DNA of 57,927 bases, filler included, from Jimgerdemannia flammicorona (GCA_003990765.1; 2 parts of 2 records of this genome joined end to end with filler, not necessarily neighbours in it); one strand, 5' to 3'. Shown: positions 1,727-55,299, numbered from the whole stretch's first letter. Program-made: numbers and translations. The notes: generated from the sequence alone by a model not told the origin.

Positions 1727-1817
<91 letters not shown>

Positions 1818-19160: not shown

Positions 19161-19162
<2 letters not shown>

Positions 19163-19191
<29 letters not shown>

Positions 19192-24940: not shown

Positions 24941-24950
24941 ACTTCGGTCT

Positions 24951-26639: not shown

Positions 26640-28727
26640 ATACATTCCCATTTGCTTCATCTCGCATTTCGCGCGCTAGAGGGTGCGTCGTGATGCTCTG
26701 TGCATACTTCCCGAGATTCTTGTGAGTCCACAAATATGGGCCTTGACTACCTAGTGACGATCCACGTTTGGTATCTGGTCGATTCAAATTCTTCCTATTT
26801 TGCAATTTAACTCTTGCACATCACAATCGTCCATGACGAAGAGACGCGATTTCGAGTCATCACGATGACGTCTCCGCCAGGTGCTGGAATATGTCGTTCA
26901 CGTTATCAATTCGTAAACCCGATCAATCAGCACGTCTTCGTTCCGAGCGTAGTCGGCCTTGATATTTCAAGGTTTCACGGAACGCGTCGAGAGTTGCCTA
27001 CGATACTGGCAGCAACATTTTAATTTTTAATAAGCTCGCACCCTTGCCTTCGAGTATCACACGTCTTTCGATTGGCTGCCATGGATTGTCACATGCATCT
27101 CTTTCTCGGCTTGATAGGAACTAGGAAAATTTTCTTGTCAGCAGTTGGGGTTTTGGTCCGACGCGGAGTGGCAATGATTGACAGGGCCTGATTTAAAAAA
27201 TAAATAAAATAAATAAAATAAAATAAAATAAAATGAAAACCGAAATTGGCTGAGTGAACAAAATTCACTAAGGCCTTTGAAACCAACAAAACTCTCACCT
27301 CATTGGATATCGGAGCTAAGGGCGTAAAAGCATTCGCAAAACCAACAAAATTCTCACTTCATTGAATCTGCAGAACAATGAGATCGAAGATAAAAGCGCA
27401 AACGCCTTCAAGACTAACATAACTCTCAAAGTAGATTCGACGATATCCCGGCGATCTCCAGATTTGACCTTCAAAAACGAAACGAACGTTTTGGCTCACG
27501 ACATTTCTCATTGAGCTGAGATCTCGATGATTACATCTCTTACCAAAGGTCTTCCAGAAAGGCAGCACAACAATCAAGTTAGGATGGTGATACATAGTTT
27601 GCATCTATTTTTGCGGGCTTGTGTGGACGAGTAAACAACTCGTTTGCGGAGTGCTTGTAGGGACCGCAATTTATAAATCATATGTGGCTCGACGACCTCC
27701 GTCGTAATGTATTTATGTGTGCGGTAATAATTACTATGGAGAATTTCATGTAATCAAATCAGATGGCCTATCCTCTTTTTGCCGTCGAGTATTTTTGACT
27801 TGGTTTTTACGTGCTTTTAACCCTTCCATGTCGTTGCTTTGACTGGACAACGCGTAACTGCGCTCAAGACGCATGACGGGCGTTGGAAATGCTACTTTCC
27901 CTTAGATGGGACAAACATTGCCGTTTACTTTGACTCATTATTTTATGGCCCAGTTCTTCAACATGTTTGGTTTGTCATTTTGCGGTTCCACATAATTAAA
28001 ACCGCCATGCAGTTCGAAGTCGCTGCCCGGACATCTGAGGTTCAAAGACCGCTAATTCCCAACGCAATAATTAGAATTATTCGGTCCATAGTCTGTCCTC
28101 ACCGGCCGAGACGAGAGCTATCCACAACGTGTATGTATAATTTGGAAACACTCATTAACCTTTATGTATTTTTAGGTACGATGAACGTGGCGAGGTTATC
28201 GGCGACGGAGATTCCAGTCTTGTAGGTACTGGGCTGTATTGGTTGTAGTTTCCATGCTATGGCAGTATGCCGTATTACATGACTATCAAATACAACGTGG
28301 ACTTGGTTGTGGTAGACCACTATATGTGGTTAAAGTTTGGCTAGGAACCAAAGGAAGAGAACCAGCAACATCATCTCAAAATTATTTATGAGTTAAGATG
28401 CTGAATGTATTGTTCACATAAAAAGGAGGAGAGAGGCATATCACGTACACGTATTTATCAAGGTTGTATCGGTGAGCCAATACAACTAAATGTGAGGATT
28501 CTTGCCTCAGAAAAACGTAAATGCGAATACAACTGAAGAATGCAAGACCTCGACGGAAGGTAGAAGGGGAAAAAAGCTTTGGAACCCGCGAGTTCGATAT
28601 CAGCTAACTATATATCTGGCAACTGGTACCTTTTCACTTCTGCACGTCGACCTTTTACAGATGTCACCATGCCTGATGCATCCGTCCAAATCCGCGCCAA
28701 TATTGCCATGGTCACAAACAACATTTT

Positions 28728-28914
28728 GACACTCAGTATCATGTAAAGCCCTCATTCCAACACATCTCTCTCTTTCCACACAATCAACCAACTTAAGCAT
28801 ACTCCCATATCAGCCCCCTCCTCTCCCACCATAACCGTGGTAGGACTGATCCATATACAGAGAGGAAGATGCCAAGGTACCTCACCACCTCTCCTGCGGG
28901 GACAATTGTTCCAA
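28728..28914 (-). mobile_element. LINE ORF2 fragment at contig end
   Basis: Minus translation GTIVPAGEVVRYLGIFLSVYGSVLPRLWWE parallels LINE-A (IIVSAEEVVQYLEIYFSVY). Left boundary approximate. Confidence 0.75.
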
Positions 28915-29014
28915 NNNNNNNNNNNNNNNNNNNNNNNNNNNNNNNNNNNNNNNNNNNNTTAATTAATTAANNNNNNNNNNNNNNNNNNNNNNNNNNNNNN
29001 NNNNNNNNNNNNNN
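28915..29014. other. Artificial contig-joining spacer
   Basis: 44 N + TTAATTAATTAA (stops in all six frames) + 44 N = exactly 100 bp. Confidence 0.95.
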
Positions 29015-29034
29015 CCCCCCTTCGCCTTTCCCAG

Positions 29035-30936
29035 TTGCTTGTCCCGAACTTTCGGGTTTATTCTTCTCTTGGAACACTTTTGTCTCCTCCCTTTTCTTCG
29101 GCTGACTGCCCCCTTTCTCCCCTTCAAGTCTTTGCCTTATCCTTGGGTCCTCGCTTTGTTTTTCCTGCGACTCCCTCACAATTCTCCTTCACTGATCCGG
29201 CTCGTCTAACACGTTTTCGTCGTGCTCTTGACCTTGCTATCTTCTTTCAAGATCATGGTGAGATGCCCTCTCGCTATTTTGTTCCTAGCGATTGGGTCCC
29301 CCCTCCCAATGTCTCTTCACACTGCGTATTCCTCGACATGGCTTGCTCTTTGTCCGTTCCCGGACGTGCTGGCTCTTGCTTGGTTTCGGACCGTGCCGTG
29401 CGTACCGCGCTTAAATTGGTCAAGCAATTGCCTATGCATTTGCTCACAGTCACTGATAAGAATCAGGGTTTTGCACTTATTCCCAAGTCGCTCTACCTTG
29501 ATGGCCTTTCTGCCCTCCTTCGAGCCACGGCTTACGAGCCTAGTGCTCTTGGATTGGATGAGGTTCTTACTCTTCTTCGGGTTTCTCTGGCTCACGCTAG
29601 ATCGCTTTCGGATTCCCCGTTCGCGAACCCCATTTTTAACTTCTTCCAGGACTCTTTGTCCTCCCCGGATGTTTCTCTTCCAGTTTTCTATGCTCTTCCT
29701 AAAGTTCACAAGCCTCTTTTGGCTTGGCGTCCTATTACGGCTGCTTATAGTTCTCCTACCACCGAGATTTCGAAATGGTTATCCCGTTTCTTTCTCTCCT
29801 GGATGGCTCTCTTACAACACCGTCTTGGGCCTGAGTACACTATTCTTCGTGATACTCAGGAGCTCGCCCTTCTCTGCTCCACCATTGTGCCTGTTTACCG
29901 ATTTTCCCATTTGGCCTCTGGTGACTTCTCTTCCTTCTATACTGCTATTCGCTTTGATGAGATCGATGATTGCCTTCGCTTCTTGGGTTCCTTGGTTTTT
30001 CCCTTGGATTCTCCAGTTTCGTTGGCCTCCATCGTTGAGCTTACGCTCCTTGTCTGCGGCTCTAACTATTTTGAGTCGGCCCTTGGCTCCTTTCATCAGA
30101 CTTCTGGTATTGCCATGGGAACGAATTGTGCCCCCACCCTTGCCAACCTCGTTGGCCTAGCCCACGAATTGCGTGCGTTACGTGATATTACTTCACCTCT
30201 TTCCATTGCGTTCCGGGCTGGGGATATCTTCTTTCGCCGATACATTGATGACTTTATTGTCTTCGCTGTTGCTGGTGTTGATATCCCTAGTGTGTTCCAG
30301 GGCGTCTACCCTCCCCATCATTCTATTACTTGGGTGTGCAGTACGACTAGTATCCCCTTTTTGGACCTTTCCGTTTCTCTTTCTCCTTTCCGAACTGTTG
30401 TTTATTCCTGTTTTCCGCGTTCCCAACAGTTCCCTGACTTCTTGTCCAACCATCCTCGTCGCACTCTTCTTGAATGTGTTCGTGGTGAGGCTCGTCGTCT
30501 TGCATTATGCTGCTCCCGTCGTTCTGATTGGGTGTCTGCTGTTCGTGTTCTTGGCAACTTCGTGGTCCATCGTCATGCCTACCCAATTTCTATCGTTCGT
30601 GATCTGCTTGCTTCTGTTGAATGGTCTGTTGTTCGCTCTTCCCTCCTCTCTCCTCTTTATCCCCCCTCCCTTCCCTCTCTCCCCCCTTACCCTCTCCGTA
30701 CCCCCTCTTCTTTCCCACCCCCGATTCTTGTCGTACCATTTGATCGTGCTCGCTGGGTCGCTCAATGCCCTGATACCGTCCTGCGCTCATCTCTTTCATG
30801 CCATGGACTTTCATCTCTTTCTCGACGCCCTCTGATTGCTCGTTCGCGTCTTCCTTCTATTTCTTCTTCAATCCATCGCTCTCGTTTTGCGTTTTCGTCA
30901 CCTTCTGGTGCCTCCGGTTCTGCCGGAGAGGATTAA
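29035..30936 (+). CDS. Intact Penelope-like reverse transcriptase without GIY-YIG endonuclease (>=633 aa, 5'-open)
   Basis: LSLGPRF, TDKNQG, FYALPKVHK..WRPI, ILRDT, SGDFSSFYTAI, NYFES..FHQTSGIAMGTNCAPTLANL, RRYIDD, IPFLDL, SNHP..GEARR, LVVPF. The ORF ends after the thumb with no GIY-YIG motif. The frame is open back to the N gap. Confidence 0.92.
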   Translation: MLVPNFRVYSSLGTLLSPPFSSADCPLSPLQVFALSLGPRFVFPATPSQFSFTDPARLTRFRRALDLAIFFQDHGEMPSRYFVPSDWVPPPNVSSHCVFLDMACSLSVPGRAGSCLVSDRAVRTALKLVKQLPMHLLTVTDKNQGFALIPKSLYLDGLSALLRATAYEPSALGLDEVLTLLRVSLAHARSLSDSPFANPIFNFFQDSLSSPDVSLPVFYALPKVHKPLLAWRPITAAYSSPTTEISKWLSRFFLSWMALLQHRLGPEYTILRDTQELALLCSTIVPVYRFSHLASGDFSSFYTAIRFDEIDDCLRFLGSLVFPLDSPVSLASIVELTLLVCGSNYFESALGSFHQTSGIAMGTNCAPTLANLVGLAHELRALRDITSPLSIAFRAGDIFFRRYIDDFIVFAVAGVDIPSVFQGVYPPHHSITWVCSTTSIPFLDLSVSLSPFRTVVYSCFPRSQQFPDFLSNHPRRTLLECVRGEARRLALCCSRRSDWVSAVRVLGNFVVHRHAYPISIVRDLLASVEWSVVRSSLLSPLYPPSLPSLPPYPLRTPSSFPPPILVVPFDRARWVAQCPDTVLRSSLSCHGLSSLSRRPLIARSRLPSISSSIHRSRFAFSSPSGASGSAGED

Positions 30937-31111
30937 AAAACATCCTTGCCCCCTCTGGGGTCTCGCGCTCGCTCTGGGGTCTCAGCCTTACTCCGCTCCC
31001 CTCCGCTGCCTTCGGCCCCTCACTTCGCTCGGGCTCGCTGCAGCTCGCTCTGTTTCAGCCTCACCCCTCGCTCACGCTCACCCCTCCGGGGTCTGCAGAT
31101 GTTTTTTAATC
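30931..31111. repeat. 14-bp perfect inverted repeat enclosing a cluster of GC mini-hairpins in the PLE 3' region
   Basis: GATTAAAAAACATC (30931-30944) / GATGTTTTTTAATC (31098-31111). Inside: CCCCTCTGGGG, GCCTTCGGC, CCCTCACTTCGCTCGGG, CTCGCTCACGCTC, CCCCTCCGGGG. Confidence 0.85.
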
Positions 31112-32500: not shown

Positions 32501-33257
32501 GGAATGAATCTTCTGAATCTTGATCTTGATTTCCTCTTCATCATTACTATCTTTGAGGAGAGCTGGTGGTTTATCATCCTCTTTCTCTTTCATTTTCTTT
32601 TCTTCTCTTACCTGTTTCTCAAGGGCCTTCTCTCTTCTTTGGTGGTAGATTCTCTTAATTTTGTCAGTATACTGGTAAAACTCATTGATATACTCTATAT
32701 AGTATATTCAGATCCCATGGGAGTAGACTTCTTGTAATATATATCTTTCCATAATCTTCTTTCATCAGTCTTCTTTACTCATCCATCAAATTTTCTTCTT
32801 CTTTTTCTGAGTTGTCACCATGTAGGCTTTCTTTTATTCACTTTCTTCTTCCTCTATCTCAGGCAGGACTCCTTTGTTGACATTGATGAGAATTTACATC
32901 TTCTGTCTGCTGTAGATAATCTGCTGTGACAAATACCAATTTGGTTGCTTTTTTAACTTTCCAACCTAGGCAGTCTACTGCTTTCTTGCTGAGAAGGCAT
33001 CCTCCTAATTCTGTATCAATGATAGTCTTAAAGACTCTATCCTCAATTTGGCAGATTGCATAGGTAGAGATTTTATAGTTATCTTTGCTTTCTTCTTCTG
33101 AGTCTTCTTGAACATTGTTGGTCTCAGTTATCTTCCATCCTTACTCCTTGGTTGTTTCAGTAAGTTCATATCTCATTTGCTGTCTGAATGTAAGTATTTC
33201 TGCTAGCTGGCCAAAGGTTATATTGATCTTTTGTTGACTGAGATCCATAAAGATATC

Positions 33258-35303
33258 TGTAAGAGAGTTACTTGTTAGAGTAACTATTACATAATTCTGG
33301 AAGGGATTTCTAGAATTTCTGGATATTCTAAAAGACTATTTTCTTAAGGTCAAGATAAATTTCATATGGAGTACATCTTCTATACTGATTGATTTTAAGA
33401 TCAGTTTGATATCTCAACCAAAGCTCTTATTCAGACTAGTTCTAGATATTCAGGATTTTCCATATTTCAGAGAAGTTCAAGAAACAAAGACCAGCTTAGT
33501 TGAATTGGCATATTACTGCAGACAATATCTAATTAGAAAATTTCATAATAGGGTTAGGACTGGGACTTAATGTGGAGCAGATTTACTTAAGAGTGGTTTG
33601 TGGGTTATTAAATAGGTTTATTTACTATTCATGTTATTACTATACTAGGAGTAGTTATGTGAAGAGATATTGTAGAGAAGTATTCAGGAATGTTCTTATA
33701 TGTTTGAGTCTGTTCAAGTCTGCAATTCTGAGGTCTGGAGAAGGGGGTATTTATACTAGTAAGGAGCTATTGGACTATATTAAATATGGAATAGCACTTA
33801 GCATCTTGCTGAGTCAGAATGCAGTCACATAGTACAAGTGTGATCTGATATATCAAGAGATTGTCTGACTGCTGAGTCAGTTAACAGTCACATCATATAT
33901 GGCTAATCTAACTATAGATTTAGACACTATCTGAGTAGTCTTCAATAATATCACCATTGATGATCTCATCTCTGATGAAGTAGTCATCTAGGAAGAGTTG
34001 TTTGCAGATTAATTCTTCTTATTTGCTAAGGTAATAATATATTGAAACTTTGTTGCCATTCTATAAGATAGCATCATCTGTCTCATATACTGGATATGGA
34101 GTTGGTGGGTGAAGGAGGAGTACATTATCTTCACTTTCATTGGATTCACTGTCAGCATACTTTCTATAGGTTATAGTACTATAAGTTGCAGGGTTGTAGT
34201 ATACTAGTGATTGTACTTTATATCACTCATACTCAGGTAGTAGAGTTATTGGTTCAATCCTGAGGATTGTCTGGAGATACACATTGTATTCTCTGATCTC
34301 TTCATTGTAGTTGAAGTAATCAGGGATAAATATAGGCTGGTATTCATAACAGTGGTCATTATCCCAATAGGTCTCATAAATGGTTATGAACTGTTGTAAG
34401 TTCATCAATAAGGTTGGCAGAGTAATCAGAGTTGGCAGGGATTTTTGACTCAAGGTGATGTCAGCCTCAGAGGGATCATTATCTTCTACTTTATCATCAT
34501 TGAACCAGATTATATCATAGATATCCTTCATGGCATATCTGACTTGGGACATTTGCAGAATGTAGTCATCAGGATGTGGGAAGGTTCTGTCTGTGGTTTG
34601 AATGTACTTGATGTACTTGTGGTTGAGTTTTTATATCATATTGTCAATTTGGCCATAGGATAGGGTAGCAACCATTTTAGCAGTAGTGACTCAGAGGTAG
34701 AGAATAAAGATACTGTACTCATAGAAGAGTTCTTGATATTTGTGGGCAATGAGTTTCTGGTGTTGAGATATCTGAGTAATATCTATATTATAGTGGTATT
34801 CAACCATATCTTCTAGGAGGCTGTCAATCTAGTAGTAGCTTGAGATTTGTCTGATTCAGTAGGCCTTACTAAGTATGTTCAGGGTATTCCATTAGGCTTT
34901 TATGAAGTAGAGGAATGCTAGGCTATGGATATTAATGAAGGGCAGAGGGAGTGTGGCTCAGTTAACAATGGCATTCCAAATGTCAGCATGGATCCAGTTA
35001 TAGATCTCTGTGGTCATATTTATGTATATGTTTAGGAGTTGGGGTTATTTGTTTAATTTGTTATTGAACACATCTCAGTGCTAGGTATATATACATTCAG
35101 TCTTGATTGGTAAGACTCCATTTGTGTAATTCTTGTGTTTTATGACTTCAAGTTAACTCAGCTTTGTGCACTGTAACTTCAGTTTGACTTAGCTTTATAA
35201 TTTACAAGTGATTTCCAGATTTGTTCAGAGGTTATATGTGATTTTAGTAGCTTGTTTGAAGGGTGACATGTGATTTCAGTAGCTTATAGGTTGTGCACTT
35301 ACA
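33258..35303 (-). repeat. Gypsy-3 3' LTR (2046 bp)
   Basis: Colinear with 42520-44574; TATAAATA on the minus strand at 33755-33748, downstream of the ORF. Confidence 0.92.
33920..35017 (-). pseudogene. ORF encoded inside the Gypsy-3 LTR (U3), unknown protein, ~320-365 codons
   Basis: MTTEIYNWIHADIWNAIVN...YETYWDNDH...DDYFIRDEIINGDIIEDYSDSV*. It spans 1098 nt, the same as the copy in the other LTR. Many internal stops differ between the copies (e.g. TGA/CAA, TAG/CAG). Confidence 0.8.
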
Positions 35304-35736
35304 ACTCTCCCCTTCTTAGCTTTTCATATCCTCATTGAGGTCATCTAGTATTATTATACCATTTGGATAGTCAAAAGTCCAGTAAGGTTCATTTTTTTCA
35401 GAAAGTGGCATACTTATAGTATAGTTGCCTAATATGTTAGATTCATACATTAAAGGGTCATATGTTTAATACTGTGTACTGGAAGAGATTCTAATGTCAT
35501 TTACTGCTGGAGAATTTTCTCTAAAGAATCTTCTTAATTATCTATATCTTATTTCCCATCAGTGGTATGAGAAGAATAGGCTGGCTTTCAGTATTGCTAT
35601 TTTTCTAGAGAGTTGGTATTTTATCTTAACTTGTTGAGTTCTTGATTTTATTTATGATAATTATAAAGGTACCTGATGTTCAGAGGTAATATATAGTATG
35701 TACTGATAGGTGCAGAAGTATTTGGGTTTCAGTTAT

Positions 35737-37007
35737 TTAAGAAATTATATTCCTAGACCAAATTAGTGGTATTTTGGAGATTGGTCTTGGGTTCTCATAT
35801 TGCATCATAGATTGGATAACCTTTCCATTTGACAAGGGTCTCAGGATGGTTTTTGTGGCTGTTGAGGATTTGTTCAACTTCATATTCTTCTTGGTCCTTA
35901 ATAATGATAGGTACAGATGGTTTTGCAGATCAGTTTGGAAATAGCTCATTGTCATTTTTATTATATTGCTTGAGACATTGGACATTGAAGACTGGGTGAA
36001 TCTTAATAGTATCTGGTAGTGCCAATTTGTAGGAGATTGGAGAGACTTGTATAATAACTTCAAATAGTCTAATAAATTTGCTGTTTAGCTTTATAGATGG
36101 TCTGTGTTTGAGGTTGTCAACTTGGTATCCTTGGATATCTAGTAGGACTTTTTCTCTGATGTCAAAACTTTCCTCTTGGTAGTACTGGTTAACATACTGT
36201 AACTGTTGTTCTTGAGCTTGCAATAAATTCTCAATTGCCATCTGGCTTAGATTGTATATTCAGATCAGGAATTCTTCAACAGCTTCAACTGTGAAGGGTT
36301 CATCAGTAGTTTAGATAAGTCTCAGAGAGGTGTTTGGGTTTTGTTCTATATTGGCAAAGAATGGGATCATTCTAAGAGAGCCTTGCTTACTGTTGTTGTA
36401 GACAAACTCAACTACAGTGAGGTATTCATGCCGATCACCTTGTCTGTAGAAAATATAGTTCTATAGCATTTGTTCTAGAGTTTGGTTCATTCTTTCAGTT
36501 TGGCCATTAGTTTTAGGGTGAAAGGCTATAGATAGTGCAAGTTTTGTTCCAAGGTATGTATGAAGGGCTTTTTAAAAATGGCTAGTAAATTTCATATCTC
36601 AATCACTAACAATGATCTTAGGAAGATCATAATAGTAGAAGATGTTATCAAACAAGAGTGTGGCTATGTCTAGTGCTATTGCAGTAGTAATAGTTAGTAT
36701 AAGTGAACTTGTTTGCTGAGAGAGTCTATGAAGACAACAATTGAATCTTTTCCTTTCTTAGTTCAGGGTAGTTGTATAATAAAGTTTATAAAATTTTGTT
36801 CCCAATTAGCAGATGGTACTGGGATAGGGTGGAGTAGGCCAGGTTTTGCTAGTGTTGAGGACTTGTTGCATTGGTAGGTATCACAGGAAGTTATGTAGGT
36901 CTTTAGCTGATCTGCCATATGGAGCCAATAGAAGTTTCAGGAAATATCTTTATAATATTTATCAAATCCTAATTGTCCAGCTATAGGGGCATCATAATAT
37001 TTGAAGG
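35737..37007 (-). pseudogene. Gypsy-3 integrase with C-terminal chromodomain
   Basis: YDAPIAGQLG..NFYW, CDTYQCNK, AFHPKTNGQTERMNQ, IHPVFNV, EEYEVEQILN..LVKWKGYPIYDAI*EP. Confidence 0.9.
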
Positions 37008-40000
37008 GACTCCTTTTGCTCAAACCATTCAGAGTGAGCTAAGCCACACGGACATCACTTCATGAAAAGTAATACATTTTCAAGTTTTCACTTTATTTAT
37101 ACTGGTGTATAAGGTGCAGCAGAAGTCTGACAACAGTTCACAACAAGTTTCTTCGAAATCTGTCAAGTTTTCGTGACATGGCGACCCAAGACTTGTCAAG
37201 CTCAGAGTGCCTAGAGAGGAGGAGGCCTGGCCTGGGCCTCTCTAAGAGTTTTGTGGCAGCTGCTGGTCAAGGTGAAGCTGGAGGGCAGGTGGGTGGTCAA
37301 GGGCCAGCAGCAGGACTGGATGGTTGGTGCATGGTGATGGAGAGTAAGTGGGCAGCCTCTAGGCCTATAGTGGGGGAGTAGCAGGGGCATAGTGTTAACA
37401 GGGGTGGATGTCAGGTGACTGGTCAGCTGACTGGCCAGGGACCCAGCAGGGGTCAGGGGTCCCAGGGTGTGATGATGGGGACTGGCTTTCCTGGGGCTGG
37501 ACCAGTGGCTGAGGGTGGGACTGCTGGTGGTACAGTAGCTCCAGATGAGGTTGTAACAGGTGTATCTGGCAGCAAGAATAAGGTGACTCTGGCAGCAGGA
37601 ACTGGGGAGCTGGTAGTACAACCATTCTTCCATAAGTCAGTATCGACTTGGACAGTGTCTGCCAATTTCTTGGGCTTTGGTTTGTTGGTCAAGAAAGTTC
37701 TATGACTGGTGGGTGAGGAGGTTGCAGGGGCTGAGTCGCTGAGGTTTATCCCCTCGGTGGAGGCAGTAGAGGTCGGATTTATAGAGGAGGAGGCTATGGT
37801 GAAGGCCTTGGAGAAGGGGCTGATGGTCAAGAATGTTAAGATGGGAATGGTGAGGTGCCTGAGATGGGACCCACATGTGGTGAGGTTAGTGGTAGAAGGA
37901 TTGCCGATGTTGAGCAGGTAGGAGACTAAGATAGTGATCGCCAAGGCACTGAAAGGCTTTGGGGAGATGGTGGATTTTGGATTTATGTTCTGGGAGGGTA
38001 TGAAGTTGAGAAATGGCAATTGTGAGGCAATGGTGTGGCTGGAGGGGAAGGAGATGACAGGCCTGGAGTGAGACTGGCCAGAGGTCATTCATGTTGGAGA
38101 GCAGGACTGTTGGGTCTGGAGGAGGAAAGGCTCTGAGCAGGAAGAGGAGGAGCTGCTGATAGCCCTTGAGGAGCATGATGAGGCGAAGGCTTTGCAGAAA
38201 AGAAAGTGAGAGGAATTCGCTAAAGATTGGATCTGGATTGAGACAGATGGCAAGAGGAAGCATTGGTATAGGGCAAACTGGGAATAGCTGCAGGCAGTGT
38301 TGCGAGCATCTTCAGAGGAGGAGGTTGAAAGAGTAGCATCTGACTGGAACCGAATGGAAGAGGTAGAGGTGGCTGAGGTGTCCTTCTCCCAGCTGGGAGG
38401 AGTGGGAGAATCTGCACATGCACCAGTGACTGGGAAGTGGGCAGATGGTGAGGAGGAGCAAGGAGGGGGCTTCAAAGATAATGTTGAGGTGGTTCTAGAA
38501 ACTCAGATGAAAGACATGGTGATGGCTAGATCAGTGAATGTATACTGGGAATGTCCTGAAGCAGAGGAGGTAGTGAGGTTGGATAAGATCTTGGAAGAGG
38601 ATGAGCTGGTGGATGTTGTCTCAGATGTATCTGCAGACAGGGAATTGCTTCAGGAGCTGTGCAGGACTCCCAGGCCTGCAACTCCAGGGCCATCGGCGAT
38701 GGTGGTGGATGGCTGATTCCAGGCAGTTCTGGAGGAACTGGCAGAGGACGACATTAAGGAAGTGGATGTATTTCAGGGCTCCCCGGAGGCATGGGAAGGA
38801 TTTCTCAAGATGGTATTGCAGGGACCGAAGCTGGTGACTGTGATGGTAGCAGCCCTTCTGGAGGATGAAGGGTATGAGGTGGATGATGGCTGAATGGCAG
38901 ATATTCATAAGGTGGTGTCTGAGTGAGTAGACCTCTTTTGTGGTAGTAATAATAGTGAGAGGATTTGGCAGACTGTTTGTGAGGAGCATCGAGACATCAT
39001 TAAGGGCTGAGCTGAGAAGGTGGTGGCAGTGGTGGCTGATATCTAAACTTCAAATTCTCCATGATGAAGTACAACCTACAAATTCTGTCAATCAACATCA
39101 ATGGTTTATGAGATAGAGTAAAGTGGTGGCATCTGTTTCAGTGGTTGAAAGTCCAGGAGTATGATGTGGTATTTCTTCAAGATATTCAGGCCTATGGTGA
39201 GGAGGATTATGGATCATAGAGTAAGGAATAGTTTAGAGATACTGGGTGGAGTAAGCAAGTTGGTATTTTGGTCGGGGTTGGAAAGGGAGAGTTAGTAGAT
39301 GTGGAATGTTTTGGTGATTGACTAGTGTGGGGCAGATTGAAGGGAGGAAAAGGAGATGGACTCTTGGTGGGCTCTGTGTATCTGCCAGCAGTTGGCAGAG
39401 AGCAAAAGCAATGGGTGGTGGAGTGGCTGGCTTGGGAGGATTGGGTGGCTCTAGGGTTAGACATTTTGGGGGGTGATTTTAATATGATTAGAGACTGTGC
39501 ACTAGATCGGTCTAATGGTGAGGCTGGTGTAGCAGTTTCTCCAGGGTTATCTCAGTGGCTTCAGGTGGAAAAGGGTATGGGATTAGTGGATGGTGTACAA
39601 TTGCAGGCAGGAGATAAGTCAGGCTCCTTTACTAGGTGGCATTCTATAGACAATGGGATGGTTGGCACACAGATTGATTGGGTACTGGTAGCTGAACATT
39701 GGGGTAATGTTTTCGATGCAGTCAGAGTACAGTAGTGTCCTTGGTCAGACCATTGGGGAGTTGAGGTGAGTGGATGATTCCAGGCTGTTAATGGAGGAGG
39801 TGGGTGCTGGCATCTTAATGTGGCTCTGCTTAGGTGTCCGGTGGAGCGAGAGCAGTTTGTGTACTTAGCCTGACAGGAAGTGGAGTGGTGGGTGGCTGGT
39901 GGTCTATCTATTGCTGATTGGTGGGGCAGATTCAAACACCTTGCTGGTGCATATTGGAGAGATACTGGGGAGGTGGCAGGGAAGGAGCATAAGGATAAGA

Positions 40001-41645
40001 AAAGGAGAGTTGAAAGTGGTCTACAGTGGTGGCTAAAGTTATTAGAGGATGGTTCTCTGACAGAAGAGAGGAAGGGTCATCTCACTAGAGAGGTAGTCAA
40101 CTTATAGGTGACTTTGAGGGAGGCGGAGGATAGAGTAGTAGACAGGCTACTGGCATACCTGAGGGCTAGATGACTGGAAGAGGGTGAATGACCGACAAAG
40201 TACCTATCCAGAGCCCCAAAGGTAAGAAACGTTCAACATAGCTGATCATTGGTCCTATGAGATGATGGTATTGAGGTTACCAGTATGACAGAGATGTTGG
40301 AGGAGATTTCAGGACAATGGCGGGCTCTCTGGGGTGATGATGAGGTGGGAGGGAGGGTTGGGGTAGGGGATATTGTGGAGGTGCCTCTTATGCAGAACTG
40401 GCCAGTGGTGCCATTATCTGCAATAGGAGCTACAGTACTAGGCAGAGTATCTTTGGAGGAGATGTTAGAGGTTCTGCAGAAAGCACTGAGTAGTTTATCA
40501 CCAGGGGAGGATAGACTCCCTTAGGAGTTTTGGAAGGAGTTTCAGGTGGAATTTGGAGCTTGGTTGGTTGAAATAGTTAATTTTGTATTGGAGGAGGGTT
40601 AGTAGATTGGGAATGGAAACTTAGGTCTGGTGTCCTTGTTGTATAAGGAGAAAGGTGACAGAAGAGAGTGGCATAATTGGTGGCTAATCATGCTGCTGAA
40701 TGTCAACAAGAAGCTAGTCTCTAAAATCTTAGTAGGGAGATTGCAGCAGTGGATTGGAAGACTGGTAGGAGAGGAGCAGAGGGGCTTCGTGAAGGGTCAG
40801 CAGATTAGAGACAGTACTGCCTGGGTGCAGAATGTTTTGGAAGGCTGTAGGAGTCAGCAGGTTGATGAGAGGATGGTCTTCTTAGATCAAGAGAAGGTAT
40901 ATGATAGAGTATGGTGGTGTTATCTGGAGGTGATTCTCTAGAAAGTAGGATTTGGTTTTGGAGAGGTTGGAAGGTTGATGGGGCTGGTGTGAGGCTGTTG
41001 AGGGGCAGTGCTGATGAATGGATAGAGTAGTCAGGAGTTTGCCTTAGGAAGAGGGGTTCCACAAGGAGATCCTCTTTTCCCTCTTCTTTATATTCTCTTG
41101 CTAGAACTGGTGCTGGCCCGGTTAAGGGGACGGCTGAATGGATTGTATATGGGTGAGGTAGTATGGAAGCTGGGAGCCTTTGCAGATGACATGGTGGTGG
41201 GGCTCAGCAGTGTGGCAGATGTGGACATTTTAAGAGATGGAATTGAACAGTATGAGGGGTTGGCAGGTGTGAAGCTGAATTGGGGGAAGTGTGAAACCTT
41301 AGAGTTAGGTGTGGGCTTAGGGGCAGCAGGATTTGGATGAGTGGTGCCTCCAGGGGAGGCAGTACGTTACTTAGGGATATGGTTCTCAGTTTTCGGGACC
41401 ATTTTGCCGAAGGAGTGGTGGAGTTCTATGGTTTGAAAATGGGAAGGTGTGCTGACAGGCTGGGCTGGTCGAAACTTTTCTTTGGCGGGAAGAGTGGTGG
41501 TCCTGAATATATATTGGCTGCCGAAGCTGTGGTACCTGGGCTACCACCTAGATTTTCCTAGATGGGTGGTGTGGCATCTTAAAAAGGCTATAGAAGGGTG
41601 GCTTTGGAAGGAGAGATGGCCACAGATTGGATGGGAGGCATTGGT
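37008..41645 (+). mobile_element. LINE-B: L1/Tx1-like LINE (ORF1 from 37178, ORF2 from 39061), 3' end deleted
   Basis: ILSININGL, VVFLQD, ILGGDFN, IDWVLV, SDH, VFLDQEKVYD, GVPQGDPLFP, GAFADD, RYLGI. Same family as LINE-A but less mutated. Confidence 0.9.
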
Positions 41646-42480
41646 ACTTGAGGTACTGGTGCAGAGTATTATGGTATTCTTTGAGTCTGTGTAAGTTGCT
41701 GGAGTAATAGTTATAGGTCTAGAGTAAGGGCTTGATTGATAGCTGTCTGTTGCTGTATAGGTGTATTCTGTCCTGATGGAGGTATGTCTCCTTCAGTAGT
41801 ATATCCAGGATCGAATTCTCTAAGATACTCCTCCTTCTCTTGGTTTTGGTCCCTGCGCAGTTGGGTTTGCTCAGCATTGAAATAGATAGAATCAGTTATA
41901 TATCTGATTTTGGATGGACTTAATTCAAAGTCAAGTTCTGCTTCAGTATTGATTTTGGGGTCAGGTAGAGCTGTAGCTAGGCCTGCTTCTGGTTCAGAGT
42001 CAGGTTGTTGATGAAGGGTTTCTCTTACTTCTTACTTAAGAATATAGTGGGCCTTACTATTCTGGAAGTAGTAGTATAATGCAGTCTTGGTCCTGGAACA
42101 GTGGAAATCAGTAGAGTTGAGCCACTTGGCTATGGAGACTTAGGATTCTTAGGTCGCTCAGATTTGTAGAGCTGACAAAACTCTTATTGAGAAGAGTGAA
42201 GAAGGCTTCTATAAGACCTCCTTTGTCTTGACTTGTGGGGTGTAGAGCAAGAAGTTCATTGTATAGGGTTTTGCCTATCTACAGATTTAATTGGAGTACT
42301 TCTTTCTTTGAATGAAGTCTGATCCACTTTTTATAGTATGGAGGTCAAATTGTCCTTATATATTAGGTTCAATTCTCTCCAGATTGTCAGATAGTTCAGG
42401 ACAAATTCCAGTTCAGAGGTTGGACTTTATACCAACTTGTAGAAATTCACAGAAGGGTTTGTAGTGGGGTGAGGAAGTAT
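41646..42480 (-). pseudogene. Gypsy-3 leader and gag N-terminal relic
   Basis: Follows the PBS. Minus frame reads ...EAELDFELSPSK...QQQTAINQAL...APVPQVPMPP up to the LINE-B junction. Confidence 0.55.
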
Positions 42481-42519
42481 CTTGAAGTAGAATTGGATTG
42501 TAAACCACTGCTACTAAGT

Positions 42520-44574
42520 TATAAGATGGTTACTTGTAGAGTAACCATTATATAGTTCTAGAAGTGGTTTCTGGAAGTTCTGGATATTCTGGAAGACCAT
42601 TTTCTTAAGGTCAAGATCAATTTCATATAGAGTACATCCTCTATGCTTATTGATTTCAAGATCAGATTGATATCTCAACGTAAAGTCCTTATTTGAACTA
42701 GTTCTAGATGTTCAGGATTTTCTGTATTTCAGGAAGTTCAAGAAACTAAGACCAGCTTAGTTGAATTGGCATATTGCTGCAGATAATACCAAATTTGGAA
42801 ATTTTGTAATAGGGTTAGGACTGGGACCTAATGTGGAGCAGATTTACTTAAGAGTAGTTTATGGGTTATTAAATAGATTTATTCACTATTCATGATATTG
42901 CTATACTAGAAGTAGTTGTATGAAGGGATATTGTAGCAAAGTGTTCAGAAATGTTCTTGTGTATTTGAGTCTATTTATATCTGCAATTCTGAGGTTTAGA
43001 AGAGGGGGTATTTATACTAGTGAGGGACTATCTAGACTATACTGAATATAGATATAGTACTTAGTGTCTTGCTGAGTTGAAATGTAGTCATATAGTATAA
43101 GTGTGAGCTGATATATCAAGAGATTGTCTGACTGCTGAGTTAGTTCATAGTTATGTCTTACAAGGCTAATCTAACTATACTATAACTACTAAGCTATCTA
43201 TAGATTTAGATACTATCTGAGTAGTCTTTGATAATATTACCATTAATGACCTCATCTCTGATAAAGTAGTTATCTAGGAAGAGTTATTTATGGATTAATT
43301 CTTCTTGTTTACTGAGGTAATAATATATTGGGACTTCATTGCCATCCTATAAGATAGCATCATCTGTCTCATATGTTGGATATGGAGTTGATGGACAAAA
43401 GAGGGGTGTATCATCTTTGCTTTCATCAGATTTACTGTCTACATACCTTCTATAGGTTATGGTACTATGAGTTACAGGGTTATAGTATACTGGTGGTTGT
43501 ACTTTATATTGCTCATACTTAGATAGTAGAGTTGTTGATTTGTTTCCAAGAGTTGTCTGGAGATATATATTATGTTCTTTAGTCTCTTTATTGTAGTTGA
43601 AGTAATCAGGAGTAAATACAGACTGGTATTTATACCAGTGGTCATTATCCCAATAGGTCTCATAGGTAGTTATGAACTGTTGTAAGTTCATTGGTAAGGT
43701 TGGCAGGGTAATCAGAGTGGGCAGGAATTCTTGGCTCAAGATCATGTTAGCCTCAGAAGGATCATTATCTTCTGCTTCATCATTATTGAACTGGATTATA
43801 TTATAGACATTCTGCATGACATATCCAACTTGGGGCATTTGCAGGATATAGTCATCAGGGTACAAGAAGGTTCTGTCTGTAGTTTAAATATACTCAATAT
43901 ACTTGTGGTTGAGTTCTTGTATCATATCATTAATTTGGCCATAGGATAGAGTAGCAACCATTTTGGCAGTAGTGACTTAGAGGTGGGGAATAAAGGTACT
44001 GTACTCATAGAAGAGTTCTTGATGTTTGCGAGCAATGAGTTTCTAGTGTTGAGATATCTGGGTAATATCTATATCATAGTAGTATTCAACCATGTCTTTT
44101 AGGAGGTGGCTGATCTGATAGTAGCTTGAGATTTGTCTGATTTGGTGGACCTCACTAAGTATGTTCAGGGCATTCCATCAGGCTTCCATGAAGTAGAAGG
44201 TTACTAGGCTATGGATATTCATGAGAGGCAGAGGGGGTGTAGCTTAGTTGATAATTGCATTCCAAATGTCAGCACAGATTCAGTTGTAGATCACAGTGGT
44301 CATGTTTATGTATATGTTTAGAAGTTGGGATTGTTTGTTTGATTTGTTGTGGTTCTCTGTTTTGATGCATCTCAGTGCTTGGTATATGTATATGCATTCA
44401 GTCTTGATTGGTAAGACTCTGTTTATATAATTCTTGTGTTTTGTGACTTCGAGTTGACTCAGCTTTATGATCTTATAGGTAATTTCCAGATTTGTTCAGA
44501 GGTTGTATGTGATTTCAGTGGCTTGTTCAAAGGGTGACATGTGATTTCAGTAGCTTAGAGGTTGTGTACTTACA
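42520..44574 (-). repeat. Gypsy-3 5' LTR (2055 bp)
   Basis: Homologous to 33258-35303; PBS adjacent. Confidence 0.92.
43206..44303 (-). pseudogene. Second copy of the Gypsy-3 LTR-encoded ORF
   Basis: Contains the 172-aa ORF 43347-43865; colinear with 33920-35017 and of equal length. Confidence 0.8.
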
Positions 44575-45834
44575 ATATCATACTTGAAGGTCTTTGTTTT
44601 GTGAAGCTTCTTCTTCTTTTCTCCTTTACTGACTAGAGTGGTTCTTTGGATGATATCTTGAACAGCCTGAGCTAGCTTCATATCCTGATCCATTTCTTTG
44701 CTTTGACTTTCTATAGCAGTCTCCATCTGCTTTTCCATAAGGTTCTTCTTGGGTCTCTCTGGTGGTCAATTGTAGAGTTCTTTGTAGACATTCTTCTTAG
44801 TGGTCTATATAGGATAGGTCTCTCATTCTTCTTTATCTGATTCCCCAATCTCAAAGGTGATGATATTGGCCTATTTCTTATTTCAAGTAGCATTGCTTAG
44901 CTATATCTTGTACTTGGTTTCACTCATGCATTTATATAAGTAGTGGTCTTCTTCTCCACAGGTATAGCAGATACCTCTTTTCTTATCTGAGGTAGTGGTG
45001 AATTTCTGAACTAGGTGGTAGTCTCTTTCTTTAATTTCCTTTACCATATCTCCTAGGTGAGCTGTCATTTTAGTGAACTTCTTGATAAGTTCCTCCATGA
45101 GATCACTATTTCTCTATTACTCAGTAGCTCTTGGTTGAGGTGTGTTTCAATTGATCACTATGGTAGGGATCATGCTGGTTGCCTTGAGTGCTTCAATTTT
45201 GACTCCAGTGACCCCCTTCATTGTATGGTCTTATAGATGTCTAGCTATCTAGTATCACTGAGCATAGGTGACCTTCTGTATCAGATCCAGGACTATTAGT
45301 AATGAGCAGATGGCTAGGGCTATCTCTAAGTAGATTCCTTTCATGAAGATTACTTCAGCTACTTGATCCCTGATGGTAGTAGCATAATATGTGAGAATTA
45401 TCTAATATCAGATTCTGGTAGAATGTGTTTGGATTCTTGCTCATTCCTTGGTATGTTATGTTGAGCTGATGCTTGATCTCATCTATATAGTATATGGCTC
45501 AGAGCTAGGTCTTCTGTGCTACAAGCATAGTATCATCATCATTTCCTATATAGGTTGTAGCTGTGAATGCTGCTCTTGCTGGTCCTTGGAGACTGAAGAG
45601 CATGAGAGTTACTTGCTGTCTTGCTGTCAGGTCCCTCATTAGAGCATATTGCTCAAAATCATCAATTAAGATAATAATTGACTTATCTGAAGTATAACCA
45701 TAGAATACTGGTGGTCTCATATCCATCTTATCTGGATATCTTAATTATATAGTTGTTCAGATGGTGATAGTTATTTGTTATTTAGCTTGAAAGTGAGAGA
45801 TTCATCTTGAATTACCAGCCAATGGACACTAAGT

Positions 45835-47844: not shown

Positions 47845-50800
47845 TAGCATATCAGTTAAGCTTAGTATCTGAACATCTCTCATACTATTCTACTACTCTT
47901 ATCAGTACTATCATATTCTCCACAGAGCCCAGCCCTATTACTATATTATCAGCAAAGGCCCCCATCTTCTAGTTTACTCCCAGAATGTTCAACTCCCTCA
48001 CCCTATGTCTAATTCTATTCAACAAAGGCTCTAGAGAGAGAGAATAAAAGATTGGTGATAGTGGATTTCCTTGCAGCACTTCGTTACTCAGGGAGAATGA
48101 CTCTTCTTTATGCTTATTCATCTAAATAGCTACCTGACTTCCCTCCAACAAACTGATTAAAGATTGTCTAAACTCTGGGGAAATCCTCATATACTTCAGC
48201 ACTCCCTCTAGCCACACATACTAGACCCTATTATAGGCCTTCTCCTGGTCCAAAAATACTAGCCAATTATCCATCTCTGCAGTATATACTCCTTCAATAA
48301 CCTATACTATCTCACCTCTGATTAAATGACCTTTGACAAAGCCCCTCTGCTCTAATACCTGCTGAGCCACTCCTTGTAACCTAGCCACCAATATCTTTAT
48401 AAACAACTTGTGATCTATATCCCAAAGTATAATTGGCCTCCAGTTCTTCTATTCCTCCATTTTTTCTTTATTTTTATACAACAGAGCTATAAGACCCAGA
48501 TGCTGTCTCCCAATCTAAGTCTCTGAGTTAATAACTTCATTATACATTCACATCAACTCCTCTAAAGCCAACTCTATATCTGCTATTCTCTTCTAGAAAT
48601 CTCAGAGTAAACTATCCTCTCTAGGGGCCATCTCAAGACTATTATTACTAACACCCTACAGATCTCCTCTCCTTAAACAGATACTCTAAGTTCATCTAAT
48701 CTCTCTACCAGATCTGAGTGCCAATCCTCCAGATACTGTTCAATATCCAGTATATTCTCTCCCCCCTCCTTCTCACTCTACAATCATTCCCACTGAGAGC
48801 TCAACTGGCCTGACCACTATCTCTCTTGCCTCATCCAATACTCCTTCACACTACTGCCTCACCCTTCTTGTCTGTAATAGTTTTGATAAGAACTTTGTAT
48901 ACCTTTAAGCCCTGCTATTACAGCCAAGTTACTATTTCCTTCATCTATAATTCTTTCTTCTGCCTAGCCACTTCTTCAGTTCCTCCACCTCTAGTCAGAT
49001 CTACTGAACCCTCTAATCTCTCTTCTTGCCATTGTTTAGCAAATTAGCCCACTTCTCCAATAGCTTCTCCAATCTCGGAGAAGATAACCTTAAATAACTC
49101 CTCTGTTAAGCACCCCTCTCCCCCCCCCTGCCTCTCTCTAGAATCACTAAGTATCTGATTTCAAAAACTGCTATTTATCTCCAATCTCCAGCCCCTGTGC
49201 CCTTTAGTTAATAATTCTGAAGTTAATGTCTATTACTCAAGTATCTCACAAGAAGAGCTCTCTCAGTAATAAAGTATTCAAGTACTAATATCCAGACCCC
49301 TCTCTACTTCTCTCAAATCTTCTAAAATCTAGCAGACCCTAGTGATCTGACCATAGACACTAGATGATCTCTAAAGAGCTCTAGACATCCACTCTCTAGT
49401 ACTCAGCAGTTAAGATCTAGTCAATTCTCAAACTCAGCCCTGTCTAGTAAGTATAGATCCTGTGATCTCTCTATCCAAGATGTCCAGTATCTACCAGTGA
49501 GCTCAGACTTTTGATCTTCTCTCAGCCTTTCATATCTCTGCTCCTACCAGCCATCTCTCTCCCTCCATCAGTTCTGTCTAACTACCTATCTCATATTATG
49601 TTAAAGTCTCTACTCAGATAGTCAATCTCCTCTACTACTATTGTACTCATCTCTTATAGTTCTCTTATCCACTCCATATACTCCCCCCTTTCTACTGAGC
49701 AATAACAGAACCCAATAGTCAAGAGGCTCTAGTCTGGTCTCCTCCACACTCCCCACACCATTCAACCCCCCCAATGTCTGATGACTCCAATGTCCCTCTT
49801 GTTCTTCTAAATCAGAATATCTACTCAACTCTATCATATAGCCACATATCTCTATTCTCTCATCCAGTCTAGTATGTCTAAGTCCTCAATACACCCTATA
49901 TTCTGCAGCAAGAACAGTTCAGTATCCAGCCTCTTCAACTAGCTGAAAATATTCCAACACATCACTATATTACTCAATTTATTAATATTCATAGAGAAGA
50001 TTCTAGTTATACTGTTTATATTGAATAATATTTGGAGAAAATTCACCCACTTTATAATTCTATACTTACTGTATTACTAGTAATCTCTCTGCCTTAAGCT
50101 CATCTGTCTCTCTCTACTAAGTATCTAGTTCTTCTAAGATCTCCCAATAGTCCTCTCTATATACTACTTTCATATTAGACCAGTACTTCTTACACACTAT
50201 CTGCCACTTTGCCAACCTCTTTCTAGGGCCTCAATGATAGGTTATACAGTCATTTGCAATTGCTATAATTACTATCTCCCTGTTGTCATTCACCTTGTAC
50301 TTATCTGCCTACAATAGACCTACTATCAGCTTATTCTAAAGCTTCTGCCCTACCTCTTCTCCTTATAGAACATCTCTTTAGTATCTCTTACTAATTACAT
50401 GAAAATTCAACTCACCTAGCTCATCTGCTATAATATTCATCAGCACCTTCCACAACTATCTCTCCTCTCCAATAGTATTATCAATACCTAGAGCTACCTC
50501 CAGTCTTTCAACCCCCTCACCTTCTTCAGTATTTATCCTCACTGACTCATCTCAGTCCTCCTTCAGCATATTCTGCAGCTTATCAGTTCCACTCCTCCTG
50601 TGGACATATGATACTACACTTAGGCCTCCTCTATCATCACCTCATTCTCAGTTACTGTACTCTGCCCAGATCCTCCCCTCTCTTCCAAGATTACTATAGG
50701 AGCTACTTTTTTCTCTTCTGCTCAAGCACTAGCTCTTAACCCAAATTCTTCAGCAGTATCTCCCCCTCTACCCTCTCTTTCAAATTTATCAACAAATCCT

Positions 50801-53741: not shown

Positions 53742-55282
53742 TGTAACAGTGACCCCAGAATGATGACATTAGTACAGGAGACAGCCTTTCCTTACAAGCC
53801 ACCAGATCGGAGCACAAGAAGATTATATGGCATATGAGATGAGCAATGATGACCAACTGTAAGTCATTGTGACTATAGCACAAGCATCCTGAAGAATATA
53901 AAAGAAGGATCAAGGAACTACAGTAGTAGCAACCAATAAGAACCACCAATCCCAAAATAGCTCAAAGACTTACTATAAACAAAATGCCTGGTGCCTGCCA
54001 AACCTCAAGGTCAAGGAATTATCAAGGTATCACAGTCGAGGAAAGGATGTTCCAAGACATCAGAAGAGCTATAAGGACCCACTCAAGAAGGACTCCTAGT
54101 GTCAACCTGAGTACTGCAGACCCCTATCACTTTATTCTCTACCACCACGAAATGGAAACAAGGATCACCATCGCCACCAAATGCCTCTAAATGTGGCAGG
54201 AATATGAAATAGGAAACCTCCTCTGCCAGGAGTTCCCACAGGCCAGCCCTCAAGAGCTACAAGATACCACTCCCATGGACCTACATGAGGCAAGGACAGC
54301 AAAGAAGATCCATCAGATCTTCAGGCATGCACCATGGTCGATCCCCAACTTGGAGTATGTTAGAGTCTCAGACTTCAGAGACTTGTCATCCCACCATATC
54401 AATGCACTAGAAACCAGGGTAGCCACAGAAGCCCAGTCCACTATCACCCTCAACAGTGAAGAAGTAGAAGACTTCTGGTACCCTATCCTTCAGGACAACC
54501 CAGACCAATTCCTGCAAGGATTGATCTCAGTATTCCAATACCCAAGCATCCAGGTTAGATCTCCCCAAGACCCCACATTTGTCCCCTATTTTGTGGAAGA
54601 GAACCTCATAGACTAGAGAGCTCCAGATCTTGTCCTCGATTTCCCCACTGAACGTGATGATGTCATCAGTGATGACGTCATCCCACGTGACATATCCGAA
54701 GCACGCAAAGAACATGAAATGTATGACAACGAAGTACACAAGACACACGGCCTGCACAATGAATTCGTGGACCTCATCTCCTTCAGTGATGATGATGATG
54801 AAGCTTCCATGGTCCTGAACTTTCTGCTCTAGGTTCTTTGTTACACTGGATAATGCCAGCACCAGTATTCTTATATAATACTGGATAATGCCAGCACTGA
54901 TATTCTGAGGTGACGCGAAATTGTTCCAGCACTGGTATTTTGATTTGATACTAAATAATGCCAGCCCTGGAACTTAGTAGTTTTAATTATTGGAATTTAT
55001 ATTTAGCTTTATATCTTAGTAACTATTGAATTATATTTTGTATAAATACCTCTCTTATTTCCTCTGAAATAAAGTCAGTCAAGTTCTGGTTTCACTTACA
55101 CACACTTCCTTGCAAGCAATCTAAGAGATAACAAGATAGTTAAAGATAAGAAGTTTGAGGACTATAAGACCTTAGAAAGGCACTCCAATAAGAACTTGCT
55201 TATAACAACTTGAGTTAGTCTAAGAGATACACCTTGAAGAGAATCTGGCATATTTGAAGGACTCAGCAACCACTACATAACA
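53742..55282 (+). repeat. Putative Gypsy-4 5' LTR (~1.54 kb) containing an ORF, tandem enhancer-like repeats, TATA and AATAAA
   Basis: TGT...ACA bounded by the PBS; repeats actggataatgccagcac at 54843-54970; TATAAATA 55041; AATAAA 55068. The partner LTR is outside the window. Confidence 0.7.
53984..54832 (+). pseudogene. ORF in the putative Gypsy-4 LTR (U3), unknown protein, >=282 aa
   Basis: ORFs 53984-54190 and 54191-54616 and the continuation to TAG 54832 share one frame, with only two internal stops (TAA, TAG). Acidic end ...VDLISFSDDDDEASMVLNFLL. Confidence 0.72.
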
Positions 55283-55285
55283 ACT

Positions 55286-55299
55286 TGGTGCCCATTGGC
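55286..55299 (+). promoter_or_regulatory. Gypsy-4 primer-binding site (tRNA-His-like, TGGTGCC...)
   Basis: TGGTGCCCATTGGC lies 3 nt after ...ATAACA; the same site occurs in Gypsy-2. Confidence 0.6.

Follow-up and report, generated by a model that had tools for sequence, protein, structure and literature searches.

Mouse mammary tumour virus (MMTV) carries a superantigen gene, sag, as an open reading frame (ORF) inside the U3 region of its long terminal repeat (LTR), and the 3'-terminal accessory genes nef of the human and simian immunodeficiency viruses (HIV/SIV) and bet of the foamy viruses reach into U3 and are expressed from spliced RNAs. Among Ty3/Gypsy elements, Cer1 of C. elegans encodes CERV, which the available portion of its description presents as an orphan accessory protein confined to a narrow group and made from a separate spliced mRNA; the protein is 517 aa long, is encoded in 5 exons and has a demonstrated role in the export of genomic RNA (PMC10309623). 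For fungi, the accessible part of Novikova et al. (2010) mentions an 'additional ORF with unknown function' in some Gypsy elements and describes chromoviruses that bear a dUTPase (PMC2864245). Here we analyse a 57,927-nt stretch of DNA from Jimgerdemannia flammicorona (hereafter the window, along whose full length all coordinates are counted), in which a minus-strand Ty3/Gypsy chromovirus holds a long reading frame within each of its two LTRs, named below the 5' LTR (42520-44574) and the 3' LTR (33258-35303).

An earlier note on this DNA had proposed that both LTRs contain a protein-coding ORF upstream of the LTR promoter. This proposal is upheld by three kinds of evidence, i.e., homology to an intact protein (P0001), a deficit of stop codons and three-base periodicity, and judged by these features of its sequence, the frame represents the mutated remains of a real protein gene of 251 codons present in both LTRs.

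The LTR-borne reading frame and its homologue

The frame that had been reported, 1098 nt in length and located at 35017-33920 and 44303-43206, was found at these positions on re-reading. The 5' LTR copy of the frame is interrupted by 8 internal stops (codons 8, 20, 42, 87, 109, 140, 319 and 340), and the 3' LTR copy by 9 (codons 20, 42, 54, 63, 109, 129, 265, 319 and 333). The earlier note was also correct that the copies are equal in length while the flanking parts of the LTRs have indels: the 1098 positions contain 0 gap columns, as opposed to 73 elsewhere in the LTR. These 73 columns correspond to 9 indel events, counted by eye, and by our own arithmetic the chance that all 9 would miss the frame if they were distributed uniformly is about 0.001. 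Because the flanking indels fall in tandem-repeat contexts, we leave their absence from the frame unexplained and do not treat it as evidence of selection.

An ancestral ORF of roughly 320-365 codons had been thought recoverable by comparing the copies. This comparison leaves 4 internal stops (codons 20, 42, 109 and 319) in the 366-codon frame and, since these four stop positions are common to both copies, it fails by itself to open all 366 codons. Support from the intact homologue is confined to codons 115-365, and the length that had been claimed was overstated. The ORF as we define it therefore consists of these 251 codons:

43206..43961, minus strand: LTR-borne ORF, 5' LTR copy; 251 codons plus stop, with internal stops at codons 140, 319 and 340
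33920..34675, minus strand: LTR-borne ORF, 3' LTR copy; 251 codons plus stop, with internal stops at codons 129, 265, 319 and 333

A search with the 5' LTR copy, in which stops were read as X, recovered P0001 as the sole match among 309 candidates (E 4.1e-88). P0001 is an intact protein of 247 aa encoded on an unrelated 998-bp ENA contig. Its alignment to the 5' LTR copy extends from Met115 to the C-terminus, with 146/251 identities (58%) and 200/251 positives (pairwise E 1e-99), and P0001 aligns to the LTR copies with only two gaps, of 2 residues each and in frame. Identity to the 3' LTR copy amounts to 142 of 251 positions, and 169 of the 247 residues of P0001 match at least one LTR copy. 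Codon 319, which is TAG in both copies and is their sole common stop within codons 115-365, corresponds to Trp in P0001, and each of the remaining stops within this interval is open in the sister copy. Some of the residues that distinguish P0001 from the copies (e.g., Ser3/Ala and Gln19/His) cannot be reached by single transitions under the standard code, and there are in-frame indels as well; P0001 therefore represents a diverged lineage and not a clean copy of the same insertion. That the ORF is open and in frame across this divergence argues for purifying selection.

The distribution of stops and of bases points in the same direction. From Met115 onward there are 3 internal stops in the 5' LTR copy (21.4 +/- 4.4 expected) and 4 in the 3' LTR copy (21.1 +/- 4.4 expected), these expectations being drawn from 5000 composition-matched simulations in which the lowest counts were 5 and 6 stops, respectively; the other sense frames contain 12-41 stops. 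Three-base periodicity is strong within the ORF (chi2 43.1, p 1e-7 in the 5' copy; chi2 47.5 in the 3' copy) and is gone past the stop codon, in the downstream LTR (chi2 7.4 and 1.7).

As the earlier note had observed, the C-terminus is rich in Asp, Glu and Tyr in both translated copies. P0001 has an isoelectric point (pI) of 4.05, 46 acidic (D+E) against 10 basic (K+R) residues, 23 Tyr, 9.7% Pro and no Cys, and its last 22 residues carry a net charge of -7. The product of the LTR-borne ORF is strongly acidic and Tyr/Pro-rich, and it is probably largely disordered. AlphaFold2, applied to an alignment of 3 sequences, gave a model with a mean confidence (pLDDT) of 33.4, too poor for a fold search, and the ESM Atlas yielded no usable match (best TM 0.30; pLDDT of the Atlas model 0.39).

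Database searches were nearly empty. Pfam returned 0 families for both window copies (maximum E 0.1) and for P0001 (maximum E 10), and a sequence search of PDB gave 0 chains at E <= 10. A HMMER profile search of 1,835,955,588 representatives found no relative except P0001, which is a singleton cluster of one member, and word-based searches with the full frame and with P0001 produced P0001 alone. Scans of JGI metagenomes gave 145 pattern matches, none of them confirmed, and 0 matches in a second scan; IMG/VR gave 185 pattern matches, again none confirmed; and Rfam found nothing in 33000-44800. The possibility that the frame might be a captured fragment of gag or pol, raised in the earlier note, did not materialize, in that neither Pfam nor the profile search matched it to gag, pol or any other family of transposable elements (TEs). 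Because repeat masking would strip such ORFs from fungal annotations, absence from databases is weak evidence of rarity.

Within the LTR, the ORF spans positions 614-1369, such that its start is 613 nt inside, and its ATG lies in the context GCCAAAATGG. Downstream of it are the motifs that locate it relative to transcription:

43009..43016, twin 33748-33755, minus strand: TATAAATA, putative LTR core promoter by its motif, 190 nt past the ORF stop
42878..42883, twin 33617-33622, minus strand: AATAAA, candidate poly(A) signal by its motif, 133 nt beyond TATAAATA
33807..33909, minus strand: pair of 40-nt repeat units, each with TGACTCA, lying past the ORF stop and ahead of the TATA box (repeat search)

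The frame had been placed upstream of the LTR TATA box and hence in U3. It does lie upstream of both TATAAATA and AATAAA; the assignment to U3 derives from these motifs alone, from which the ORF would be located in U3, upstream of the transcription start. The TGACTCA within the 40-nt units is presumably an AP-1/Gcn4-type site. On the full-length RNA, about 1.4 kb separate the ATG from the chromodomain upstream, with which pol ends, and because of this distance translation would need a separate mRNA.

The host element, its boundaries and its decay

The chromovirus that carries the ORF has the following parts:

42520..44574, minus strand: 5' LTR; 2055 nt, TGTAAGT...CTTATA (self-BLAST, global alignment, ends read)
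33258..35303, minus strand: 3' LTR; 2046 nt, TGTAAGT...CTTACA (self-BLAST, global alignment, ends read)
44575..44579, minus strand: target-site duplication GATAT, upstream copy, read at the LTR edge
33253..33257, minus strand: target-site duplication GATAT, downstream copy; the flank aligns from 56586 onward, 75% over 87 nt
35305..35317, minus strand: polypurine tract AAGAAGGGGAGAG, adjoining the 3' LTR; clear, read from the alignment
42505..42516, minus strand: TAGTAGCAGTGG, candidate primer-binding site by its likeness, 3 nt past the 5' LTR
35741..36999, minus strand: pol remnant with integrase zinc-binding domain, SH3_Tf2-1 and chromodomain (Pfam); many stops and one frame change
37150..41750 (borders approximate), plus strand: non-LTR retroelement resembling a long interspersed nuclear element (LINE), in the place of gag, protease (PR), reverse transcriptase (RT) and RNase H

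Self-BLAST detected the LTRs as a direct repeat pair, 33260-35304 and 42522-44575, with 82.6% identity over 2086 columns, and their ends were refined by reading the alignment. A global alignment of the LTRs has 1722 identical positions among 2013 aligned columns, plus 73 gap columns. The pair shows both TG..CA termini and a short target duplication, and at 56581-56598 a related element preserves the paralogous site in its unoccupied form, AGTATGATAT-CTACAAGG, where GATAT occurs once. The chromovirus sits within an older Gypsy copy. Because of the target-site duplication and of this unoccupied related site, the LTRs can be attributed to a single insertion with secure boundaries.

Between the LTRs, only the 3' end of pol is left. 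The remnant matches Integrase_H2C2 (1.2e-8), SH3_Tf2-1 (4.5e-12) and Chromo (3.5e-6) in Pfam, and its integrase part has 575 relatives at E <= 1e-5 with the same domains, the best at 44-45% identity; named relatives include Paraglomus occultum (42%) and Closterium (33-34%). When the three sense frames of the chromovirus were compared with Pfam, neither gag nor RT, PR or RNase H came up. The LINE-like element, whose borders are marked by shifts in composition, is G-rich and contains an RVT_1 domain (Pfam 1.6e-19, at about 40672-41383 on the plus strand) along with an endonuclease-like part recognised by eye only. The chromovirus has been gutted by this insertion, which replaced gag through RT, and because the copy is such a remnant, its assignment to the chromoviruses depends on the integrase-chromodomain segment and on LTR structure. 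The label 'Gypsy-3', given to it in the earlier note, is backed by no tool.

Of the 291 mismatches between the LTRs, 259 are transitions. When sites are grouped by inferred context, the LTRs differ at 56/58 CpG, 119/296 CpA, 59/185 CpC and 19/265 CpT sites, i.e., decay proceeds in the order CpG > CpA ~ CpC >> CpT. The observed/expected (O/E) ratio of CpG is 0.00-0.16 in all retroelements and repeats tested and in AT-rich blocks; it is 0.88-1.08 in 1-5000 (which includes a Kelch gene), 26000-28900 (unannotated) and 29015-31000 (an RT-like ORF). The repeats have been hit by C>T decay, and other DNA of the window has been spared. The GpC O/E ratio is 0.78-1.03 throughout the window, despite the sharp split in CpG.

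Both ORF copies were inactivated by C>T hypermutation, and these patterns fit either deamination of 5-methylcytosine or a process similar to repeat-induced point mutation (RIP). Classical RIP restricted to CpA was considered and was rejected once sites were counted by inferred context; many changes that look like CpA/TpG are in fact CpG sites whose decay took a different course in each copy, with 18 TG/CA pairs in the frame. Two further suggestions of the earlier note found no backing. Purifying selection had been read from synonymous transversions between the copies, whose share (4/12, with 13% expected) is not significant; among the transitions 51/157 are synonymous, with 33% expected. Nothing indicating chimeric LTRs was found.

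LINE-like copies occur at 37150-41750 (plus strand), 19100-25000 (minus strand) and 47900-52000 (minus strand), their apparent coding strand being strongly G-rich (magnitude of GC skew about 0.36-0.63 on the plus strand). RVT_1 was confirmed for 37150-41750 only; identification of the other two relies on translations inspected by eye and on a mutual similarity of 65-67%. At 28963-30936 (plus strand), a 657-codon frame is open from stop to stop, starting inside a run of N (N runs at 28915-28958 and 28971-29014). It contains RT-like motifs seen by eye (ALPKVHK, YIDD), has no Pfam match at E <= 0.001 and, unlike all other repeats of the window, is not depleted in CpG (O/E 0.88); it may resemble Penelope-like elements. 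Two other ORFs are apparently cellular: one at 2721-3344 (minus strand) encodes a Kelch-repeat protein (Pfam 2.9e-13), whose nearest Atlas clusters are in Ascomycota and Mucoromycota, pointing to a fungus as the probable host, and one at 897-1706 (minus strand) encodes a protein of 270 aa that repeats 'NPY/QHNP' motifs, includes a hydrophobic stretch and matches nothing in Pfam.

A second chromovirus and the origin of the gene

A second, dUTPase-bearing chromovirus near the end of the window has a comparable arrangement:

53742-55282, plus strand: putative 5' LTR of the second chromovirus, beginning TGTAAC
54191..54829, plus strand: analogous ORF; 213 codons, one internal TAG, pI 4.33

The putative LTR (1.5 kb) has TATAAATA at 55041 and AATAAA at 55068, and it is followed by TGGTGCCC at 55286; the arrangement ACT-TGGTGCCC at 55283-55293 resembles the layout of TAGTAGCAGTGG in the first element. 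Its ORF has 1 stop, with 10.1 +/- 3.1 expected (0/3000 simulations as low), a periodicity chi2 of 40-53 and no Pfam family, and the same GTATAAATACC box stands about 210 nt downstream of it, past intervening repeated motifs. The two chromovirus families have GTATAAATACC in common, and the promoter-proximal parts of their LTRs are otherwise unalignable beyond short motifs. What the second ORF product shares with P0001 is a short motif near the C-terminus (hhalign over 20 columns, E 0.039 in a single comparison, probability 1.3%); no similarity was found by hhalign between the product of the full 1098-nt frame and the extended second ORF (E 0.41). Its AlphaFold2 model has a pLDDT of 38.9, again too poor for a fold search. 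From 55446 to 57926 (plus strand), gag (CCHC), PR and dUTPase of this chromovirus form one continuous frame with 5 stops (2 TAG, 3 TGA) and no frameshift, and such stops-only damage matches point hypermutation rather than ordinary decay. GATAT stands directly before TGTAA at the 5' edge of both chromovirus LTRs (44575-44579/44568-44574 and 53737-53746), and a further GATAT-TGTAA occurs at 53662-53671, 75 nt upstream of the second LTR; this repetition could be due to chance, to a target preference or to a degraded extra LTR edge.

We consider it probable that what the LTRs hold are the dead copies of a gene, genuine and lineage-specific, which spanned about 251 codons, belonged to the retrotransposon and lay wholly within U3. 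The alternatives differ in how they account for a complete ORF in this position. An open frame arising by chance in A/C-rich non-coding LTR sequence would be helped by the G-poor sense strand (13% G), which lowers the counts of TGA and TAG; it is refuted by P0001, which matches with the same start and end (E 4e-88), and with 0/5000 composition-matched simulations having so few stops and with strong periodicity, we give it practically no credence. The window is a nest of TEs, containing LINE-like copies, a second chromovirus and an RT-like ORF, and since nested insertions are common here, the LTR ancestor might have absorbed a fragment carrying the gene of another transposon. Such a relic is improbable: the ORF is whole and not a fragment, inside the LTR, neither terminal repeats nor a further set of ends came to light, no TE protein is matched in Pfam, and TE proteins are usually abundant in databases, where this one has a single relative. 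Gene capture by LTR retrotransposons is established (e.g., Bs1 of maize), and an intronless cellular or orphan gene, or its mRNA, might have been taken into the 3' region or the LTR by template switching and carried along as a passenger, with P0001 as the cellular original in a related organism. The ORF is indeed intronless and complete, having an ATG and a stop of its own, and P0001, a single member known from one 998-bp contig, has a context open to either reading. Against capture, a cellular gene would be expected in the annotated proteomes of several species, whereas the profile search yields P0001 alone; P0001 contains little Gly (1.6%), Arg (1.2%) or Val (2.4%), as would suit an element whose sense strand is G-poor; and an ORF occupies the same position in a second chromovirus family. 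We regard capture as unlikely, if less so than a transposon relic, and prefer an accessory gene of the element mainly because of the parallel in the second chromovirus, whose ORF favours an LTR-borne accessory gene over a one-off capture.

The extent of the gene is a related question, because the frame continues upstream of the supported start:

43962..44303, twin 34676-35017, minus strand: in-frame upstream extension, codons 1-114, with no counterpart in P0001

Within this extension, both copies have stops at codons 20, 42 and 109, and at each of the three one copy reads TGA and the other TAA. If the whole 366-codon frame were the gene, these common stops would be CGA codons that decayed to TGA in both copies. 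Consistent with such a history, CpG is nearly all lost (56/58 inferred CpG sites differ between the LTRs), codons 54 and 265 are TGA in one copy and CAA in the other, implying CGA, and the 342 upstream nt have no indel between copies. Periodicity likewise extends 5' of Met115, with a chi2 of about 22-26 (22.5 and 23.6 for codons 1-114 of the two copies) as compared with 22.5 for the 99th percentile of 99 background windows. P0001, however, begins exactly at Met115 and leaves codons 1-114 unmatched, all six events at the three codons would need C>T on one strand, and the 3 upstream stops that remain after comparing the copies form a weak contrast with the 7 in each other frame. A gene of 366 codons therefore seems to us doubtful. 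Coding-like periodicity runs about 400-500 nt 5' of the supported start (43962-44460 and 34676-35190, minus strand), and it may stem from an ORF that was once longer, from an upstream exon or from an upstream ORF.

Returning to a 251-codon accessory gene of the retrotransposon, its residence within the LTR means that it would be copied to both ends at each retrotransposition and would survive in solo LTRs. The ORF may have originated in the 'env position' of many Ty3/Gypsy elements, as an extra frame past pol and ahead of the polypurine tract, and it could have joined U3 when plus-strand priming shifted upstream. Its mRNA could be subgenomic and arise by splicing, or it could start at a promoter located within the 600 nt of U3 that precede the ATG, and it would end at the LTR poly(A) signal. 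The protein would then serve the element in an accessory capacity, our best guess being that of an acidic activator or adaptor. A broader generalization is possible and is put forward tentatively: a clade of fungal-type chromoviruses may routinely bear a U3 protein gene, represented here by two unalignable families at the same distance from GTATAAATACC, and encode acidic, apparently disordered proteins with a C-terminal L-x-[LI]-D-x4-R-D-[DE]-V-I-x-D-D motif. If true, fungal retrotransposons would have an accessory gene in the style of retroviruses, duplicated with each transposition and expressible from every solo LTR.

Several points weigh against this interpretation. The family consists of three sequences only, two of which are the LTRs of one insertion, and the differences between these two LTR copies look neutral, with no sign of selection after insertion. 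The genomic context of P0001 could be that of a free-standing gene, which would favour capture. The likeness of the second ORF to P0001 is weak, and the putative LTR that contains this ORF has no second copy in the window (the 3' LTR would lie past the window end). The placement in U3 and every step of expression are read from motifs, and neither homology nor structure prediction lends support to any function, including the transactivator or silencing suppressor that the earlier note had envisaged.

Relation to known accessory genes

The LTR-borne ORF is similar to sag of MMTV in being a complete ORF of a few hundred codons that lies wholly in a long LTR, upstream of the putative promoter, and that is present at both ends. 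It differs in that the host element is a fungal-type chromovirus and not a retrovirus, and in that its protein, known here from sequence, is acidic and looks disordered. The nef and bet genes merely overlap the LTR, whereas this ORF begins 613 nt inside it, and there is no homology to them; no relationship of the product to Sag, Nef or Bet was detected, with 0 Pfam families for the copies and P0001 and 0 PDB chains.

Within Ty3/Gypsy, extra ORFs also occur in plant elements. As with CERV, the LTR-borne ORF would encode a lineage-restricted orphan accessory protein of a Ty3/Gypsy element, and unlike CERV it is known from sequence alone. The extra ORFs of fungal Gypsy elements reported by Novikova et al. 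are likewise of unknown function, and in the part of that paper available none is placed inside an LTR; overlap with an element drawn there is possible (PMC2864245). Our literature search turned up no fungal LTR retrotransposon described as having a protein ORF within its LTR, and the accessible portions of the crapaud paper (PMC10787394) and of Muszewska 2011 (PMC3248453) describe no LTR-internal protein ORF.

Fungal LTR retrotransposons have been treated as gag-pol machines with purely regulatory LTRs. A protein gene in the LTR, if conserved, would add a retrovirus-like complexity to these elements and give each solo LTR coding potential. Pipelines that mask repeats would hide such genes systematically, which may explain why a single relative was found in very large collections. 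A shift of the polypurine tract offers a concrete and testable route from 3' extra ORFs to U3 genes, an arrangement otherwise known mainly from retroviruses.

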